Notes under the pieces: model-generated
The model's database searches: none
What the model was told of the DNA's origin: nothing
Seen by the model: the letters and a program-made list of their open reading frames with translations, nothing else
Program-made: the position numbers and the translations under genes
From: Candidatus Nanohaloarchaea archaeon
GTDB lineage: Archaea > Nanohalarchaeota > Nanosalinia > Nanosalinales > Nanosalinaceae
Assembly: GCA_041640035.1 (NCBI GenBank)
Contig: JBEQBC010000001.1
Location: forward strand, 160,001-224,000
Length of the DNA: 64,000 nucleotides
Direction: 5' to 3'
Shown here: positions 34,712 through 57,992 of the stretch, piece after piece
Numbering within the stretch: the first letter of the stretch is position 1
Layout of the letters: every line of letters starts with the position of its first letter

Positions 34712-37645
34712 ATGCGTAAGAAGTTATCCATAATTGTATCTTTGCTACTTTTGACCTCGGTTCCAGTTCTTGCGTATGAATATGGTGGTTCAACTGATGT
34801 ACCTGAACAACCTGCGAATACGGATCAGTTCTCATATGATCTAGGAGCAGGATATACATTTTCAGGTGGCGTACCGGATGAAAGTGGTAGAGCTGCATTC
34901 TTTGGATCAAGGACAATACAAGTAAACGAATCAGGAACATATGAATACCCTGACTTAGAGGACAGTGAAGACTCCATTCTAGAAAGATATATTACGAATG
35001 AAGGAAGTAACCAGTGGGGCAAAGGCACTATTGAATCAACAGTTATACAAGTAGATGACGCCATAGTTAGGTCAAACCGAGACGGAATACCATATCTCGT
35101 AGACCCTCCGCATCCAGAAGCAAATCAGCCAGAAAATCGGTGCGGTGACGCAATCACAAGCGGTATGAACGATGAAAGAACATGTCCAGAAGACCACGGT
35201 CTTCCCTCAGATGATAACGACGATAGTACTACTGCAGATGTAGCCAACACCGTTACCAATACTTTCAACGATGTAGTCGGCGAATATGGAGTGAACGAAA
35301 TAGGATCTGTAAGTAATGTTGGAGATAGTGGAGATGATACTAATGATTATATCAGTTATGACCCAGATTTAGTTGGAGATATTGCGTTTTGGGCCGAAGA
35401 ACACGATGATGACGAAGATCCAGATATTACTGGACCGAACCAAGGCTCAGATACTGTTGTTTACGAGGATCAAGATTGGGAGGAGACGCCAGATTATTTC
35501 TTGAAAGATGGTGGAACCGAAATCTGGATGATCTATGTAGAAAAAGACGGTACGAAACATATAGCTGATCAATCTACTAAAGACTACACCTACGGCTATT
35601 CCTACACCGATTACAAATACGAGGGAACGGTATCAGATGACTCATGTTCTGCGCCTGGAGGCTGGAGCTGTGATATGAAGGATATTAATAAGCCATGCTG
35701 GTCAACGAACGATAATAAAATAACTCATCATACCCTGACCACAGACACTGAAAAATATACTGCAGAAGGGCCAGAGCGCTTTGAGACATCAGAGGGTAGT
35801 GATCACGGAAGTACTTACGGAGTGGATGAACACACTCCCAGTGACTTCTCATTTGATGTTGATGTTAAATACAACGATGGTTCGACCACTGAAAAAAAGG
35901 ATGCTCACGATTGTACTGACGAAAATAAAAATGTCAAGGAATATACAGGATGTACCAATACAAGTTGGTCCACGCCTGACAGCCCTCAGTGCGATGTATC
36001 ATACGGCATGGCGGATTGGTACAAAGATGACTCTTCCTCCGAAGATTATAACGGACCTCTGCCTGGAAAGTGGAATGATGGGACGGAAAACCACGAGTGG
36101 ACCTATGAATACCAAGACTTAGATTTCAGAACTGAGAAAATCTGGGATATTAATCCGGCTGAGAATCCTTCTGGTAATCCTCTTCCTTCTCATTACGCGA
36201 TGTTTAGAGATACAGACTTCAAGACCAATGAGGGTTCTGCATATAATGTAGACCAAAGCAGCAGAGATAAAATAAATGTTCATAGCCATTCTGATGGAAG
36301 AGCTTACTGGTCTTTCGATGTGGATCCAGGTTCTGAAGGTTTCTCGAATGACCACGCAGTCAGTCTATCTCGATTTAAGATGGATGTAGAAAGAGGTAGT
36401 CAGGACTTCTATATTACGAGAGATTACCATGAATCATACGACCCAGATGGACCTTACGGTGAATCAGACGGCTATATTGCAATCGAACATGATGTAATTA
36501 ATGAAGGACAGTACAATGAGCAAAAAAGTAGCTCCAGGCAAATTGTAGGTACAACCTCACTTTTCATGCAGAGAGAATCTGGTCTAAGCGATAGTGCCAG
36601 CAACATACAGTTTACAGACTTCGTAGACACAGGAGACATAAATGTGCCTGCATGTCCTTGGGAGGAGACGAAGTGCGTTGCAGCAGTTGACATAAGCATG
36701 AAGGATCTGAAGAATTGGGGAAGCATCAACCCGACAGATGGAATAAGACTAGATGTAAGCGAAACATACGCAGCAAATGAATCAATGAGTGTCTGCAAAA
36801 TGTATCAGCAAATCAGTGGTAGCGGAGACTTGAATCTAGGTTCTTCCGATAATCAACAATGTGATTTCGAAGAAGGAGACTATACAAGCTGTACTGGTTG
36901 TGGAAGTGAAGATCCTCCTGAACCTCCTCCGCCTCCACCTTGTGGTTCTCCAGGAGAGAGATGGCATACCATGGAAGGGCCTGAAGTTAATGAAGATGCT
37001 TTCACATCTACGAATGAGCAGGAAGTCGTAGATGACTACGAAGAGTGCGTTCAGCATTCTCAGTGTGTATACAAGGGTTCTCCTGTAGATGAAGGGTATG
37101 TCGCAAATGTTGCAAGTGACACACAGTCAGGTTACGAAGTCGGAGGAGGGTCTAACGACTGGGAAGTCTGCCTGAATATTCATCATACCGATAAATACCC
37201 TGATGCTGATAACGGATATCACAGTAAAGGAGCACATGAATTCGGCGGACAGTGGTACGACCTTGATGATGACCGAGTAGATTACTACCTCCGACCAAGC
37301 AATGATAACGGCGGAAACGGTGGAGAAGATGACTACGATGGAGCAGGTCACCGCCTGATTTCACAGGCCACGGAAAGTGAACAGGAGAATCCTAACCATA
37401 TCTCCTATTACTACAGAAGAAATCCAAATCCAGAGCATCCAGATTGGAATCCAAGAGGATACACCGGTTCAGGATCTAACAAGAATTACTACTATGGTTT
37501 CAATATAGAAGATGACTGCGATTCAGACCTGAGTGGCTGTGATGACTCTGGTGTGCAGACGAACTTCTTCTACTCCTTCATCTGGGAAAATCAGGGAATG
37601 CGCGTTGAAGACTACGATCATGTGAGGTCGCCACCGGTATCATGA
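34712..37645 (+). CDS. Large secreted Asp/Cys-rich protein
   Basis: Signal peptide, many Cys, poly-Pro linker; 977 aa. Confidence 0.8.
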   Translation: MRKKLSIIVSLLLLTSVPVLAYEYGGSTDVPEQPANTDQFSYDLGAGYTFSGGVPDESGRAAFFGSRTIQVNESGTYEYPDLEDSEDSILERYITNEGSNQWGKGTIESTVIQVDDAIVRSNRDGIPYLVDPPHPEANQPENRCGDAITSGMNDERTCPEDHGLPSDDNDDSTTADVANTVTNTFNDVVGEYGVNEIGSVSNVGDSGDDTNDYISYDPDLVGDIAFWAEEHDDDEDPDITGPNQGSDTVVYEDQDWEETPDYFLKDGGTEIWMIYVEKDGTKHIADQSTKDYTYGYSYTDYKYEGTVSDDSCSAPGGWSCDMKDINKPCWSTNDNKITHHTLTTDTEKYTAEGPERFETSEGSDHGSTYGVDEHTPSDFSFDVDVKYNDGSTTEKKDAHDCTDENKNVKEYTGCTNTSWSTPDSPQCDVSYGMADWYKDDSSSEDYNGPLPGKWNDGTENHEWTYEYQDLDFRTEKIWDINPAENPSGNPLPSHYAMFRDTDFKTNEGSAYNVDQSSRDKINVHSHSDGRAYWSFDVDPGSEGFSNDHAVSLSRFKMDVERGSQDFYITRDYHESYDPDGPYGESDGYIAIEHDVINEGQYNEQKSSSRQIVGTTSLFMQRESGLSDSASNIQFTDFVDTGDINVPACPWEETKCVAAVDISMKDLKNWGSINPTDGIRLDVSETYAANESMSVCKMYQQISGSGDLNLGSSDNQQCDFEEGDYTSCTGCGSEDPPEPPPPPPCGSPGERWHTMEGPEVNEDAFTSTNEQEVVDDYEECVQHSQCVYKGSPVDEGYVANVASDTQSGYEVGGGSNDWEVCLNIHHTDKYPDADNGYHSKGAHEFGGQWYDLDDDRVDYYLRPSNDNGGNGGEDDYDGAGHRLISQATESEQENPNHISYYYRRNPNPEHPDWNPRGYTGSGSNKNYYYGFNIEDDCDSDLSGCDDSGVQTNFFYSFIWENQGMRVEDYDHVRSPPVS

Positions 37646-40600
37646 AGAAGTATGTAATACTTTCAGCCCTTTTTCTTTTCTCTCTGTCGGCGGCGTCAGC
37701 CCAGGGTATAGAGGTAGAAACAGGGTACTTCATGGCCGATGGTACCGGAACCCAGACCGTTGATGTAGGATTCGAGCCAGAGATGGTAGAGTTTACAGCC
37801 AATCAGAAAATAAATTCAATAAACAGAGACTTTGCAACCACAACTAACTCTAACTGTCCTCAGAATGTCAACGGATGGTCTGAAGGAACAGCAGTATTCG
37901 ACTCTAACGGTTTGCAGAAACAGATGGCAATCGGAAGCTTCCGTAACTCCGACAGCACCAACCAGCACAGAGTAGCTTCCTCACAGAGCGATATAATCAA
38001 GAACATCTACACTGACAGAAACGGGAACGAATGTGGAAAATTGGAGATCACATTGAATCAGCAGACCTCAAACGGCTTTGAAATTGATATCCAGAACAAA
38101 TACAACCAATGGGACGATGTAGTTATGTACCGCGCCTACAACATCCCGAGCAATATCGAATACGATGCAGGACTGGACATGGTAAGTTCTACAGGTCAAA
38201 AAGATGTGGACGATCTAGGGTTCGAACCATACTACCTGAAAATCAGGAACGCCCAACTACTCCAAAGCTACAATACAAATGTTAACAAGGGAGGAAGTTA
38301 TATTGGTCGTTCACAGGGCTACGGACTGATCAAAAACGATGGCAGCATCGAACAGTACTCAATGGGATACGGAGCAAACTCCCACTCTACAAATGCTCAC
38401 CACTCATACTCAAGCGATGTCAATATAATCCGGAATAAATACAGCGGCCAGAACGGAGCTGATGACGGATCAACCAAGGCCTCACTTGAATCCGGTCTCA
38501 ACAATGGTTTCAGGCTTAATGTAGGAAGCAATCAACACAATGAAGTGTTTATGTACAGAGCCTTCGGTTCAGGTAACTACCGCGTTGAACTAGGTCATAG
38601 AACCATCAGTTCGACAGGCAACAAAGTCCTAGACTTCGGATTCACTCCAGATCACATATCTCTACACAGCGGTCAGAGAATAAGCGGAATGAACCAAGTC
38701 TACAACTCACCCACGAACAGCGGTTGTTCCAACGGCTACGGCTGGATGGACGGCTGGATGGATGTAGCGGACGGAGACCAGTACGCGATCGGAACTGGTA
38801 GAAGCTCCGACTCAATGAACGCCGACCATGTATTCGCAAGCAACTCACAGATGCTGATGAATGTATACACAGGTCAGAACTCAGGAGAATGTGGGCAGCT
38901 AACAGGATCTGTGACCTCGATAGTAGACGGACAGGGAGCAGAACTCGATGTTAACAATATTTATGTAAACGAGATGCTTCTGTTCAACGCTTGGGATCTA
39001 TCGGTAGTCGACTCAGATCCACAATTCTCTGGAGATAGATATGTAGCGGATGAAACCGAAAAAGGAGATGGAGCAACGATTTATACTGGTTCACCGGAGT
39101 TCGGTATAGATGTTAACCATCCCGACGATGTAGAAGTTACGGTAGAATTCCTCGCTGGTGATGGCAGCAGTTTCGCCACAGATTATGTTGATGAGAGCGG
39201 CGAAGCAACAGCGACATGGTCTGGTCTTCAGAACGGTGAAACATATGAATGGGAGGTCAGAGCCTGTGATAACTACGGTAACTGCCAGACTTCAAGCACA
39301 TGGACATTTACAGTAGACTATAATGACCAGCTAGGTAGAAGAGATGATGACTACCATCCACAGGGAGCTAATGTCTCACAGGATAGCCCATTCTTCACAG
39401 GCTATATCGACAGGATAATGGATAACTCTTCACAGCTTGAACCAGGAATGGAATCAACTTTCTACGATATGAGCGATCCAACAGCAGATCCTGATAAGTA
39501 CCACAGAGATTATGCGTTTATCGCTGATGCAGAGGAGGCAAAATGGTTCGATTCACAGGGAACAACAGATCGTTCAGATAGATGGAGTATTTCAGACGAT
39601 GTATCGGAGAGTATAGGTAATACTGGTAAGGCGTGGGACTCAGGAGGGACATACTATCATCCAGGTTACTCAGGAACGGAAAGAGATGAGGCTAATGATC
39701 CTACTATTCCGAAGCCAGCAAAGGTATTCGCTAACTCTTACGCAGCTGTAGCAACCTCAGAACTAGAGGCAGATAGCTCAGGAATAAGAGAAGGATTCGG
39801 CGTGTGGATAGATCCTGATAACATCAAGAAGTTTGACGAATACTACGAAAACTCCTGGGAACAGAAAGTTCAGTTTGGAATTGATCTCACCGGTCCCGAC
39901 GCAGGCGTAGGATTTGATTCGATGTCTTACGGCGGAAACTCGTTAAACGACTTTGAATACCGTTACAATGAAGATACAGAAGTAATTGGAGATATATACT
40001 GGCAGAATGAGTACAGAGGAATGAGTGAGGTACCTGGTGAACTTCAGCAATCAATGTGTGGAGACGACGGTACAGAATACCTAGTAGAAGAAGTAGGAGA
40101 AATTAATAACTCTGCAAGATATGCCGGAAATTACGCCTGCGCAACCACCAATGATGTATGTTATCATAGCAAGGTAAGCGGTAGAAAACTGTTTAGCACT
40201 GGTCAGTACCTTGACACAGGAGATGCCTCAGAGTACGAGGGAAGAGCCAAGAATGATAGAGAAAACTGCAGACAGTACGACTGGGATGAGGGACGGTTCT
40301 CAAGTATACAGGCAGACCTCTTCCCCGGATGGTACGACCAGGACTTCAAACAACAGTACTGCAGTGAAAACACAATATTCGGAAATGGAGGAGTAAGATG
40401 GTTCGACTCGTCCTATGTAAGCGAGAACCCTCATGCGGTCACAGGAGGTATTGACGATGACTGGAACTCATATGTTTCAGGAAAGATAGGTTCTGTCTCT
40501 TCAGTAGATCCTTACACCTCCCGGCCTGATCAGGAAAGCTGGGTCGGAATGCAGACACCTGTACCAACAGGAAACGATGGTAACAATAACATAGCGACTC

Positions 40601-41391
40601 TAGGTTTCTGTGGAGGAGATGACTCGGCAGAATACCTCGTAACACAGGACTGTGTAGCGGGAGCATGCAGCACAAACAGAGATGTACAAGGAGTGTCCAA
40701 AGACCCTGACAACTGCGTAGCCGATGGAGAGGTCATCGCCTCGACTCAGCCTGATGTTAACAATGTAGATTACCAAGATGAGAACGGTAACTGGCAGGAC
40801 ATGGAAGGAACTGACGCCAGAAGAATAGTGCCGGAAGGAAGAAGTATTGAACTGAATTACGGTGGGGCGACAACCGAGCTTACATGCTTCGCAGGATCAT
40901 TCCTCTCAGAATGGCCGGTAATCTTCCAGGAAGACACAGTATCAGTACCTTACGGCGAAACATCTACAGTCACCTTCAGACTAGTAAACCCTGACGAAGA
41001 AGCAGTCGAATACGAAGTCGATCTTATAACTCAGACTGACTCCTCAGTGACAGGAGCGGGACTCGAAAGCTTCACATCTCTGGTAGATCAGGACGGACAG
41101 ACAACATTCAATACAGAAGTTCCTGCCAGAAGCGGAAAAGCTTACCAAGTAGAGATCAGAGGAGGAAATCAGCAGATAGACGACCCAACCGATAATAAAG
41201 TCGAGATCAGGGCAGAAAGCACAGACGGCAGGATCACAGGAAGCGACTCAGTAGGTGTACAGGTAGTAGAAACCGAAACAACAGGAGCCGGTCAACAGGG
41301 AACATCGCCTGATGCAATTCCGGGAATAATGCCTCTACAAGTTCTGATGATGATCATGTTTGCCGCAGCAACAGTATTCTTCTGGTCCTAA
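37642..41391 (+). CDS. Large surface protein/adhesin: three tandem repeats, FN3-like domain, Cys-rich CG(G)DD modules, C-terminal anchor
   Basis: GF(E/T)P repeats; GLQNGETYEWEVRA; CGDDGTEY and CGGDDSAEY; IPG plus TM at the C-terminus. Confidence 0.82.
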   Translation: MKKYVILSALFLFSLSAASAQGIEVETGYFMADGTGTQTVDVGFEPEMVEFTANQKINSINRDFATTTNSNCPQNVNGWSEGTAVFDSNGLQKQMAIGSFRNSDSTNQHRVASSQSDIIKNIYTDRNGNECGKLEITLNQQTSNGFEIDIQNKYNQWDDVVMYRAYNIPSNIEYDAGLDMVSSTGQKDVDDLGFEPYYLKIRNAQLLQSYNTNVNKGGSYIGRSQGYGLIKNDGSIEQYSMGYGANSHSTNAHHSYSSDVNIIRNKYSGQNGADDGSTKASLESGLNNGFRLNVGSNQHNEVFMYRAFGSGNYRVELGHRTISSTGNKVLDFGFTPDHISLHSGQRISGMNQVYNSPTNSGCSNGYGWMDGWMDVADGDQYAIGTGRSSDSMNADHVFASNSQMLMNVYTGQNSGECGQLTGSVTSIVDGQGAELDVNNIYVNEMLLFNAWDLSVVDSDPQFSGDRYVADETEKGDGATIYTGSPEFGIDVNHPDDVEVTVEFLAGDGSSFATDYVDESGEATATWSGLQNGETYEWEVRACDNYGNCQTSSTWTFTVDYNDQLGRRDDDYHPQGANVSQDSPFFTGYIDRIMDNSSQLEPGMESTFYDMSDPTADPDKYHRDYAFIADAEEAKWFDSQGTTDRSDRWSISDDVSESIGNTGKAWDSGGTYYHPGYSGTERDEANDPTIPKPAKVFANSYAAVATSELEADSSGIREGFGVWIDPDNIKKFDEYYENSWEQKVQFGIDLTGPDAGVGFDSMSYGGNSLNDFEYRYNEDTEVIGDIYWQNEYRGMSEVPGELQQSMCGDDGTEYLVEEVGEINNSARYAGNYACATTNDVCYHSKVSGRKLFSTGQYLDTGDASEYEGRAKNDRENCRQYDWDEGRFSSIQADLFPGWYDQDFKQQYCSENTIFGNGGVRWFDSSYVSENPHAVTGGIDDDWNSYVSGKIGSVSSVDPYTSRPDQESWVGMQTPVPTGNDGNNNIATLGFCGGDDSAEYLVTQDCVAGACSTNRDVQGVSKDPDNCVADGEVIASTQPDVNNVDYQDENGNWQDMEGTDARRIVPEGRSIELNYGGATTELTCFAGSFLSEWPVIFQEDTVSVPYGETSTVTFRLVNPDEEAVEYEVDLITQTDSSVTGAGLESFTSLVDQDGQTTFNTEVPARSGKAYQVEIRGGNQQIDDPTDNKVEIRAESTDGRITGSDSVGVQVVETETTGAGQQGTSPDAIPGIMPLQVLMMIMFAAATVFFWS

Positions 41392-41441
41392 AGGATGACC
41401 GGAAGAATTAAAAAATTCTCTTTTACCTTTCTACTATACAA

Positions 41442-41480
41442 ATGAACGGTGGCTGTGTCCCTCGGTTACAGAACTTCTGA
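41442..41480 (+). CDS. uORF1 of auxiliary ProRS, MNGGCVPRLQNF
   Basis: ATG about 27 nt after ATTAAAAA; single Pro codon CCT 41460; within stem 41451-57/41491-97. Confidence 0.6.
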   Translation: MNGGCVPRLQNF

Positions 41481-41529
41481 AAAAGAGTTTCACAGCCGTT
41501 TTTCTACCCGAATTTTCGAGGTATTTTCT

Positions 41530-41577
41530 ATGAACTATTCAACGAAGGGTGGACGCGTTCCACTCACGACTAACTGA
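41530..41577 (+). CDS. uORF2 of auxiliary ProRS, MNYSTKGGRVPLTTN
   Basis: GAGGT 7 nt upstream; single Pro codon CCA 41560; stop within hairpin 41573-41595. Confidence 0.62.
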   Translation: MNYSTKGGRVPLTTN

Positions 41578-41643
41578 GTCAAAAACGGACTCAGTCAAAC
41601 AGGTTTCAAAATCTGAAATAAATTTCTCCGGCGGTGAGCTTCT

Positions 41644-56090: not shown

Positions 56091-57992
56091 TTAGTCTGCA
56101 CCTACTGAATTTGTGCGTTTGTTGTCTTCGAATCCTGCATGTGGATTTGTTGATGTGGCTTGTTTTTCAATTTTCTCTGCCTCAGTTCCTTCATCAACAT
56201 AGTTAAGCATCTCTTCACGGTATGTATCGGTAAACCAGTCAACAAACTGGCTGTATTCATCTTCAAATTCGTCAACACTGTATGTGCCGGGTTCAAGATC
56301 TTTTTCATCGTACAGCTGAGCGGTGTAATCCGCAAAATCGGATAAATCATCGAACTGGCTATCCAAGTATCCTTCAAAGCTGTCATAATGATCTAGATCG
56401 TCAAGAACAAGTTCAGCAGAGAAAGGAAGTTCGCCGCTGAAAGATTCTCTGACTCCCTCCGCAAGAATATCCACAAGCTCGTTCTCATAAACTGCGTCTA
56501 GATCAGCACCACTTGGAAGCTCTGCATCAAGCCCGTTTCTCTTCGCGTCTTCACGGAACTCCAACGCGTTTTCTGTCTCCAAGCCGTGTTCATGGAATAG
56601 TTCCTGAACCTGATCGTAGACATTTATCAGGCTTTTCTGGGTTAGAAGCGCTTCATGGCTTCTCGGACTGTTGCTGAATGAACGGAACTCGATTATCCCA
56701 TCGTTCTTCGGAGCGATATCAGGTCTGACAAAGGTATTATGGTATGTAAAGTATCCTGCCTCATCTTCAGTTCCAAGGCCTGCTACTTCCAGGAATTCTT
56801 CGGTTGAGAGATCTGAGTGATCGACCTTGACAGGTTTCATCACTTCTTCGCCGTCTTCCTCTACCAGTATCTCTCCAAGGTACTGCTGATCCTCAGCGAA
56901 CTGTTCGAAGGTGACTACTGACTCCTCTATTCCGGAGAGCCCAGGCATCACCCAGGTTGATTCCATTCCGTACTCTTCATCTACAGTTCCCTCTGGCTGG
57001 TGTGTTTCTTCATCCAGAACCTGTATCTCTGATCCGTCAACTTCGGGAGAGAGGATCATCGGCCGTTCCATAACCATCTCTATATAGTCCTCGTGGTCTT
57101 CTACATCGGATAGATCCTCTATATTTCCGTAGTTCTCGTTGGTAGGTAGTGCTTCGTCAAGTACATCGCCCCAGCGCTCTGTTCCGTTCCGCAGAGCTGC
57201 TGGAGAATTGGAGACAAACAGGTCATATATCAGGTCTCTTCCGCCTTCAGCAACTGCCTCATACAGTCCGTCTTCGTCCTCTTCTAGTACAGGGTCGTTG
57301 GAGAATAGTGTGTCTACCCCGGGTATTACATCGAGCATTCCTGGTTTTTCTCCGCCGTTAAAGAAGCTGTGGAAGAATTCCTCTATCTCCTGCTCTTCTC
57401 CTACAGGTGTACCAGTGTTGAGCTGTGTTGCTGCAGGCCAGCCCATAGCATCGAACAGTTCTCCGTGTCTGCTTCTCAAGCCGGTGTAACGCGGCTTTGG
57501 TCTTCTGTTCCTGTCAGCTTCACCTTCAGTGGCGAACTCCCTCATCAGACCGTTTTCGTATGCTTCATGTCCTTCTGGCAGGTTCCGGTCCCTCATCTGT
57601 GAGAGGTGTTCCATCCGGAACATCATATCTGACGGGTTCTGGAATACTTCAGTTGCTATCTCGCTCTGAGCCGGGTGGTAGTCCGTATCGATTTCCGCTG
57701 AGAAATCTTTGTGTTCTTTGAAGTTATCGTCTTCTACGCTGACGCCGAGCATTTTTTTCTCTCCGTTGATTTCCTCAGTCTCAGGTTCGGCGTCTTCGTT
57801 TGCAATTAAGTTTTGGAACGCTTCTACTGCTTCTTCGTTGTCGATCAGTCCGTCTTCTTTTCTGATGATGTCTTCTTTTTCTGCTCCGACATTTGCTTGG
57901 CTGTTTTCTGTAAAGTTTTCATCCCAGAGTGTTCCCAGTGATTCTACTAACTGGTTCTGAGTACTTTTGCTTTTTTGCTGGCTTGCTGACAT
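56091..57992 (-). CDS. Divergent glutamate-cysteine ligase-like (COOH-NH2 ligase) protein
   Basis: VGAEKE, QSEIAT, AATQLN, HNTFVRPD...IEFRSFS. Confidence 0.7.
   Translation of the reverse strand: MSASQQKSKSTQNQLVESLGTLWDENFTENSQANVGAEKEDIIRKEDGLIDNEEAVEAFQNLIANEDAEPETEEINGEKKMLGVSVEDDNFKEHKDFSAEIDTDYHPAQSEIATEVFQNPSDMMFRMEHLSQMRDRNLPEGHEAYENGLMREFATEGEADRNRRPKPRYTGLRSRHGELFDAMGWPAATQLNTGTPVGEEQEIEEFFHSFFNGGEKPGMLDVIPGVDTLFSNDPVLEEDEDGLYEAVAEGGRDLIYDLFVSNSPAALRNGTERWGDVLDEALPTNENYGNIEDLSDVEDHEDYIEMVMERPMILSPEVDGSEIQVLDEETHQPEGTVDEEYGMESTWVMPGLSGIEESVVTFEQFAEDQQYLGEILVEEDGEEVMKPVKVDHSDLSTEEFLEVAGLGTEDEAGYFTYHNTFVRPDIAPKNDGIIEFRSFSNSPRSHEALLTQKSLINVYDQVQELFHEHGLETENALEFREDAKRNGLDAELPSGADLDAVYENELVDILAEGVRESFSGELPFSAELVLDDLDHYDSFEGYLDSQFDDLSDFADYTAQLYDEKDLEPGTYSVDEFEDEYSQFVDWFTDTYREEMLNYVDEGTEAEKIEKQATSTNPHAGFEDNKRTNSVGAD

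Follow-up and report, generated by a model that had tools for sequence, protein, structure and literature searches.

In prfB, a Shine–Dalgarno (SD)-like element, a NUU codon in the ribosomal P site, a slowly decoded codon in the A site and a following C make up a frameshift site, and the gene product itself decodes the slow codon, giving negative feedback. The +1 sites of yeast Ty1 and Ty3 rely on a scarce aminoacyl-tRNA, a vacant A site and a slip of the P-site tRNA. Control by leader translation of the stall-and-refold type is represented by ermC; the leader of an auxiliary tryptophanyl-tRNA synthetase (TrpRS) in Streptomyces and the Pro-codon leaders mgtL and mgtP in Salmonella are reportedly bacterial leader-peptide attenuators. 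To our knowledge, charged-tRNA sensing in archaea is poorly understood. Nanohaloarchaea are tiny symbionts that take amino acids from their haloarchaeal hosts. Here, we analyzed a stretch of 64,000 nucleotides (nt) from a Candidatus Nanohaloarchaea archaeon (GCA_041640035.1, contig JBEQBC010000001.1, positions 160,001 to 224,000; hereafter the window), in which two upstream open reading frames (uORFs), each with a single Pro codon, precede a gene for a prolyl-tRNA synthetase (ProRS) without any Pro codon. The conservation and phasing of this leader point to a two-step +1 frameshift relay at hungry codons that would end in termination and reinitiation at a UGA overlapping the ProRS start, a reading to which we give a probability of about 0.65.

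In the available text of PMC8211752, internal SD-like stimulators are described for −1 sites only, antizyme appears as a +1 sensor, and "hungry" frameshifting is named as an effect of starvation, not as a regulator. The accessible part of 10.1101/834739 describes a mycobacterial "Cys ribulon", in which a leaderless polycysteine small ORF (sORF) is the first cistron at several loci of one pathway. Like these sORFs, the leader studied here begins with a short and apparently leaderless ORF, would sense an amino acid and recurs at several loci of a pathway. Unlike them, for which the same text describes Cys runs and a stalled ribosome that blocks a duplex sequestering the ribosome-binding site (RBS), it carries one sensed codon per uORF and phased +1 frames. 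Our literature searches returned no report of a Pro-free ProRS, of this leader or of hungry-codon frameshift regulation of this kind, and no described leader-peptide or tRNA-sensing control of archaeal amino-acid or synthetase genes.

A two-uORF leader before a proline-free synthetase

The ProRS gene (41644–42849, +) starts with GTG. Its 401-residue product matches TIGR00409 with 399.2 bits, above the curated cut-off of 306.7, and the match is split into two stretches because the INS domain is missing. By predicted activity, the gene is a bacterial-type prolyl-tRNA synthetase. It contains no Pro, as the initial annotation, made from the letters alone, had stated. The genome assembly comprises 0.98 Mb in 24 contigs. 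Pro accounts for 3.46% of its proteome (746 crude ORFs), and this ProRS is the longest Pro-free ORF of the 746. An ordinary, archaeal-type ProRS with 23 Pro residues is encoded 1.5 kb downstream (44382–45860, +).

Both uORFs lie within the 252 nt that separate the end of a surface-protein gene (41391) from the ProRS start (41644), exactly where the initial annotation had placed them and with the Pro codons it had named. uORF1 (41442–41480, +; MNGGCVPRLQNF) has 12 codons, of which codon 7 is its sole Pro codon (CCT, 41460–41462), and uORF2 (41530–41577, +; MNYSTKGGRVPLTTN) has 15 codons with one Pro codon at position 11 (CCA, 41560–41562). A TATA-like box, TTAAAAAATT (41409–41418, +), stands 33 nt before the uORF1 ATG and belongs to an A/T box aligned in 14 leaders, where it lies 28–34 nt ahead of this ATG. 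We found that starts across the genome (741 ORFs) show an AT-rich peak at −33 to −25 from the ATG and no strong or clear SD signal. The TATA distance of uORF1 thus matches the usual start geometry of the genome, which implies that uORF1 would be a leaderless or near-leaderless first cistron. uORF2 and the ProRS gene are preceded by SDs, as expected for internal cistrons: GAGGT (41519–41523, +) in the window, with GTGA-N5-ATG at the other loci, for uORF2, and GGTGA (41633–41637, +), 6 nt before GTG, for ProRS.

Pro-free ProRS genes were obtained from 12 of 50 genomes of the family (7 of 61 in a first sample) and from three close metagenome contigs. All 15 full-length loci at 62–71% ProRS identity encode an enzyme with no Pro; one of them was met under two labels (L017 = L099; 66% identical to the window ProRS). 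The motif [GT]GT[GA][GA]-N4-[GA]T[TC]-CC occurs twice upstream of all 15, each time within a short ORF started by ATG. This two-motif leader was absent from Pro-containing homologues, with no instance at 77 metagenome loci or at 75 genome loci. The next homologues share at most 49% identity, contain 12–18 Pro residues and are mostly haloarchaeal and bacterial. The nearest Pro-containing relatives (L100–L110, 40–49% identity) belong to Halobacteria, the group in which nanohaloarchaea find their hosts. The comparison suggests that the Pro-free ProRS was acquired from a host and then purged of Pro codons.

The leader can be aligned over its full length. Its conserved order runs from the TATA-like box through uORF1, a block that pairs with uORF1, GTGATTTCTATG (uORF2 SD and start) and uORF2 to a variable stretch, TCAAAAYC, a T-rich stretch, GGTGA and the start codon. 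The TCAAAAYC element, block G (TCAAAATC in the window, 41606–41613, +), is nearly invariant in all modules, and the frame in which it could be read differs between species. The uORF ATG is invariant, and the spacing from ATG to motif (18, 21, 24, 27 or 30 nt) is a multiple of three in 25 of 25 modules. One genome, G064, carries leader and ProRS twice (L013 = G064:C83 and L017 = G064:C9), and an insertion of about 55 nt in L017 breaks the second of the frame rules described below.

Frame rules, proposed shift sites and RNA structure

The distance between the two motifs is 1 modulo 3 in 14 of the 15 loci, with listed values that include 85, 97, 100, 109 and 121 nt. In these 14 loci, the +1 frame of uORF1 contains no stop between the motifs and is the frame of uORF2; the other two frames contain one to six stops. 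The 15th locus, L016, has a third motif without an ATG between the two, and the frame rule is obeyed twice. From the second motif to the ProRS start the distance is 0 modulo 3 in 12 different lengths of 75–306 nt. The +1 frame of uORF2 is open for 25–102 codons, and its UGA overlaps the ProRS start (GUGA, AUGA or UUGA) in 14 of 15 loci.

We refer to these open +1 frames as bridges. Bridge 1 of the window (41461–41529, +) is open, Pro-free and in frame with uORF2, and bridge 2 (41561–41647, +) has 28 codons without Pro, with its TGA (41645–41647) overlapping the GTG (41644–41646). Read from stop to stop, the uORF2 frame is open from 41446 to 41577, so that it begins inside uORF1, and the third frame is open from 41534 to 41647. 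The window products are uninterrupted when GTCC (first site, joining uORF1 to the uORF2 frame) or GTTC is read as one step. Across 13 loci (L017/L099 left out), the bridge frames contain no Pro in 873 codons, while the other two frames of the same DNA contain 29 and 46 in 846 codons each. Only the designated +1 frame shows the phasing, the stop–start overlap and the lack of Pro.

At three loci (L016/L194 in G072, L181 in G033 and L202 at G070:C2), the second bridge has grown to about 100 codons and reads as a small acidic Pro-free protein without a family match. In G033, this extended bridge is followed by only a C-terminal remnant of ProRS.

At the proposed shift sites, the Pro codon follows a GUU or AUU in 29 of 30 motifs; the single GUC is in uORF1 of the window, where GTC would occupy the P site and CCT the hungry A site (41457–41462, +), and the other 14 loci have GTT or ATT there. 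A C follows the Pro codon in 26 of 30 motifs, giving CNC codons in the +1 frame, so the codons after a slip would be UUC in the P site and CNC in the A site. An SD-like GGUGR stands 4 nt before the NUU in 25 of 25 modules (GGTGG at 41448–41452, +, in uORF1 of the window). No 16S rRNA is assembled in the genome to which the window belongs; in two relatives, its 3' end, GGAUCACCUCCA, contains an anti-SD that matches GGUGR. Judging from the SD-to-start spacing of uORF2 and ProRS, a duplex at GGUGR would set the P site one base beyond NUU, as it does in prfB.

Pro codons are CCU in 11 of 15 uORF1s and CCA or CCG in 15 of 15 uORF2s; CCC is never used. The genome encodes tRNA-Pro with GGG and UGG anticodons and tRNA-Val with GAC and UAC, and a tRNA scan of the window returned no tRNA gene. 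The earlier proposal that the two stages sample different Pro codons therefore applies at most loci, and by codon usage the stages would mostly sample the two isoacceptors. Slippage of tRNA-Pro itself on CCC-N in the P site was considered and rejected: CCC does not occur, and the His and Leu variants described below keep NUU-C. The sensed codons that follow NUU (Pro, His and Leu) all begin with C, which a requirement for NUU-C in the slip would explain. A UUU-AUC variant of the site is also present.

The leader RNA is highly structured. For the 269-nt intergenic RNA, the predicted folding energy is −78.3 kcal/mol (z = −3.9), a value reached by none of 200 shuffles. RNAalifold placed codons 2–5 of uORF1 in a helix, P1, with a block about 35 nt downstream (41448–41457 with 41491–41500, +), so that the uORF1 GGTGG doubles as part of the P1 5' arm. 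In 13 leaders, 85% of P1 cells are paired, with compensatory changes in 5 of 11 pairs, compared with 36–50% in slid controls. The stem at 41451–41457/41491–41497 in the initial annotation is the core of this conserved, covarying helix. The 3' arm of P1 resembles an anti-SD, and three GGUG elements, the main SD included, are possible pairing partners. The stem said to enclose the second Pro codon is likewise conserved: hairpin P2 (41547–41565, +; GGGUGGA at 41547–41553 with UCCACUC at 41559–41565) holds GGTGG (41548–41552), GTT (41557–41559) and CCA (41560–41562), with 91% of cells paired and wobble changes only.

Two other predicted hairpins fared differently. The 8-bp hairpin over the uORF2 stop is present in the window (41573–41595, +) and is not conserved across loci: orthologous versions with changed letters occur in L005 and L008, and L007, L013, L015, L020 and L021 have other hairpins or none, so we regard it as variable and outside the core. 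The hairpin thought to hide the uORF2 SD appears only in the fold of the window's own leader, not in those of the other leaders. A further helix, P1b (uORF1 UUCCUC with GAGGAA near its stop), was dropped as unsupported, with 55% of cells paired in a fixed register.

The GGxVP shared by the two uORFs was found in both, as had been noted, and is mostly a feature of the RNA and not of the peptide. Of the 30 motifs in the 15 loci, 29 have GGT as the first Gly codon (the exception is TGT in uORF1 of L014), and the residues at uORF1 codons 2 (N/T/S) and 4 (G/E/D) vary while covarying with the P1 3' arm. Because the Gly codon is nearly fixed as GGT and codons 2 and 4 covary with P1, GGxVP is, by sequence comparison, largely the RNA-level motif GGUGR-N4-RUU-CCN-C.

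No pairing partner of block G was found by eye or by helix scan. Block G was also considered as the BRE (B recognition element)/TATA of a second promoter, a less likely role, since internal initiation accounts better for the conserved SD and the GUG/UUG starts. The surface-protein gene upstream (37642–41391) encodes 1249 residues, and the C-terminus of its product presumably resembles an anchor of the PGF-CTERM type. Directly 3' of its stop, a hairpin followed by T4 (41405–41425) overlaps the TATA-like box of the leader.

The same module before other genes

Two leader covariance models, R1 and R2, matched 22 and 34 of the 50 family genomes, respectively, and R2 matched none of 20 genomes from the other four families of the order. 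Modules with one, two or three chained stages were observed. With Pro codons, the module precedes proC-proB at two loci (L188 in G028 and L191 in G015; TIGR00112 240 and 200 bits) and the archaeal ProRS at three (L192 in G004, L195 in G007 and L245 in G023); the bacterial-type gene was not found in these last three genomes. With His codons in both uORFs (GG-x-V-His), it precedes hisG and a hisS/hisZ-like gene (L200, G012:C1:614119-614264, −; L231, G065:C9:20000-20083, −). At these His-type loci, the +1 frame of uORF2 is the reading frame of hisG itself. With Leu codons, the module precedes a leuA-like gene with HMGL-like and LeuA_dimer domains (L241) and members of a family of large acidic proteins without assigned function, one of which lies in the window.

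The Leu module of the window has a single uORF (60127–60062, −; MSVAITGGRVLQDEIHIYGQF), with the Leu codon after GUU. Its bridge (60108–60013, −) is Leu-free, and the UGA overlaps the ATG (UGAUG) of the main ORF (60013–58283, −), which encodes a 576-residue acidic protein without a Pfam match and with 4.3% Leu, below the 5th percentile. Across 10 Leu-type modules the bridges contain 7 Leu in 261 residues, and 7 of the 10 hold none. In the proC-proB, archaeal ProRS, His and Leu modules, the bridge stop lies within −14 to +9 nt of the main start.

In the window, a 633-residue acidic protein without a Pfam match (56091–57992) follows the 576-residue one. Nine Leu-/Ile-type modules (L198, L199, L227, L234, L236, L238, L240, L242 and L244) have a +1 ORF that misses the gene start and gives a peptide of 40–60 residues ending in a run of Leu or Ile. 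Such a peptide might act as a second leader peptide, of the classical kind, or as a small membrane protein.

A proposed frameshift relay, its alternatives and known systems

The leader is very probably a translated one that reads Pro-tRNA. The invariant ATG, the triplet spacing in 25 of 25 modules, the leaderless geometry and the exchange of the sensed codon with the pathway all favor the two-stage Pro-tRNA sensor that the initial annotation had envisaged. We propose that this sensor works by frameshifting. Transcription would begin at or just before the uORF1 AUG, and a ribosome that reaches the sixth codon (GUU; GUC in the window) would have the single Pro codon in its A site. If Pro-tRNA is plentiful, reading would continue and terminate a few codons on, far from ProRS. 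If it is scarce, the ribosome would wait, GGUGR 4 nt upstream would pair with the 16S rRNA tail, and this pairing would help the P-site tRNA to slide forward from NUU to UUC. The slipped ribosome would cross the open, Pro-free bridge 1 and enter uORF2 in frame; alternatively, ribosomes could initiate on uORF2 through its own SD. A repeat of the slip at the second Pro codon would lead through the open, Pro-free bridge 2 to the UGA overlapping the ProRS start (GUGA), and termination beside the GGUGA SD would allow a restart on a gene without a Pro codon. Along this path, from the first AUG to the last ProRS codon, no Pro codon would be read in frame.

Several observations weigh against this relay. 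A single bridge is open in 5–25% of shuffles, and the loci are related and so do not amount to 15 independent trials. A second frame before the start is also free of stops in 9 of 15 loci, which makes openness alone weak evidence, although this frame, unlike the bridge frame, contains Pro codons. The second frame rule is broken at L017/L099, where the stop lies 7–9 nt before the start, and Pro codons do occur in the bridges that precede the archaeal ProRS. After a slip, tRNA-Val GAC would make just two of three possible pairs with UUC, and at site 1 of the window (GUC-C, with GUC shifting to UCC) only one pair would be kept. A pure frameshift model explains neither the covarying P1 nor the nearly invariant block G. 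For cellular archaea, the available text of PMC8211752 gives only one −1 case (fucA1) and a suggested Mg chelatase frameshift.

A ribosome paused at a Pro codon might instead act without any change of frame, by covering a strand of P1 or P2 so that refolding frees the ProRS RBS or prevents termination or decay. P1 is real and covarying and would be opened by a ribosome stalling on the Pro codon of uORF1, P2 forms around the second Pro codon, the anti-SD-like P1 3' arm has the main SD among its three possible GGUG partners, and the mycobacterial precedent, in its available text, relies on leaderless sORFs (10.1101/834739). However, constraint folding of 15 leaders, with the footprint of a stalled ribosome masked at one or both Pro codons, shifted the predicted accessibility of the ProRS SD and start in no consistent direction; this purely thermodynamic test showed no consistent gain of the kind that a Cys-type duplex switch would produce. 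The 14 aligned leaders contain no conserved terminator-like hairpin with a U-tract, and only the leader in the window has a T5 after P1. A hairpin with the ProRS start in its loop was rejected, as its pairing (55%) was no better than in shuffles or slid controls. Stall-based attenuation also leaves unexplained why the +1 frames are open, phased, devoid of Pro and end on the start, and why hisG lies in the +1 frame of a uORF. We consider it unlikely, and with no conserved terminator, no consistent SD or start switch and no conservation of the SD-hiding and stop hairpins, the parallel once drawn with hairpin attenuation of the Streptomyces TrpRS type is not supported. The +1 frames are conserved, open and Pro-free and terminate at the ProRS start, which argues for a frameshift relay rather than for hairpin attenuation.

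The +1 frames might also be small overlapping ORFs of an ordinary kind, initiated at the GUG in GGUGR and coupled to ProRS, with the uORFs modulating access to this GUG. A GUG does head every bridge, and the 40–60 residue peptides with hydrophobic tails in some Leu-/Ile-type modules are possible products in their own right. Yet these starts have no SD at a usable distance, since purines abut the codon, and the middle motif of L016, which lacks its own ATG, lies within the uORF1 +1 frame. In addition, the GUG lies 9 nt upstream of the Pro codon and would be occluded by a ribosome that pauses on this codon, so that scarcity would lower ProRS, which is the wrong sign; we regard such ORFs as a decidedly improbable explanation. 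An RNA that binds uncharged tRNA-Pro through a displayed codon as a T-box does, or an operator bound by ProRS, would account for a sensed codon that swaps with the regulated pathway like T-box specifier codons, and the GGGUGGA stretch presumably resembles a T-box sequence. The CGCG part of the resembling segment, GGGUGGACGCG, is not conserved, however, and an Rfam scan of 40800–42200 with E-values up to 10 matched no T-box family and gave only four weak, unrelated chance matches. A direct RNA sensor would not need an invariant ATG, an SD or triplet phasing either, and we give this possibility very little credence.

Beyond ProRS, the modules make it somewhat probable that this nanohaloarchaeal family has a codon-programmable regulon of frameshift relays, an archaeal counterpart of attenuation and T-boxes. 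Its platform would be a leaderless or SD-led mini-ORF with GGUGR, a 4-nt spacer, NUU-C and one exchangeable sensed codon. Scarcity of the charged tRNA would cause a +1 shift into a bridge purged of that amino acid, which would bring the ribosome either to the start codon of the matching synthetase or biosynthesis gene or straight into that gene. Chaining of stages could sharpen the response and sample different isoacceptors. The Pro-free ProRS would then be the extreme outcome, in which the whole path from the first AUG to the last codon can be translated without Pro-tRNA.

If true, the relay would provide the first case of a regulatory +1 frameshift among cellular archaeal genes and the first natural hungry sense codon known to us as the sensor of an autoregulatory loop, in a design that could be reprogrammed by swapping a single codon. 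It would explain the loss of every Pro from a 401-residue ProRS, as the enzyme that relieves the shortage could be produced during the shortage. The relay would also bear on how nanohaloarchaea survive failures of their amino-acid supply, and automated gene calling will overlook the uORFs and bridges as well as the true starts of hisG-type genes.

Compared with attenuators of the trpL/hisL type, the leader likewise has short, presumably translated ORFs with codons of the regulated amino acid. It differs from them in that no terminator/antiterminator pair with a U-tract was found in 14 aligned leaders, in its archaeal host and in its phased bridges, and it differs from T-box riboswitches in having no covariance-model match in the Rfam scan. 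As in hungry-codon frameshifting during starvation of E. coli, a vacant A site would let the P-site tRNA slip. Unlike the E. coli and Ty cases, which are errors or devices of fixed ratio, the sensor is conserved before genes of the same amino acid. The resemblance to prfB extends to the SD-like GGUGR at a short fixed distance before NUU-C, matching the anti-SD of 16S rRNA in two relatives, and to a presumably slow codon that depends on the regulated product (Pro with ProRS and proCB, His with hisG, Leu with the leuA-like gene). P-site re-pairing, a feature of prfB, would here retain two of three pairs with tRNA-Val GAC on UUC, and one at site 1 of the window. In contrast to prfB, the sensed codon is a sense codon rather than a stop, and the sites lie in uORFs, twice in series, in an archaeal host. 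ProRS is not encoded across the shift, the +1 frame ending instead at its start, and only the hisG variant shares that feature of prfB.

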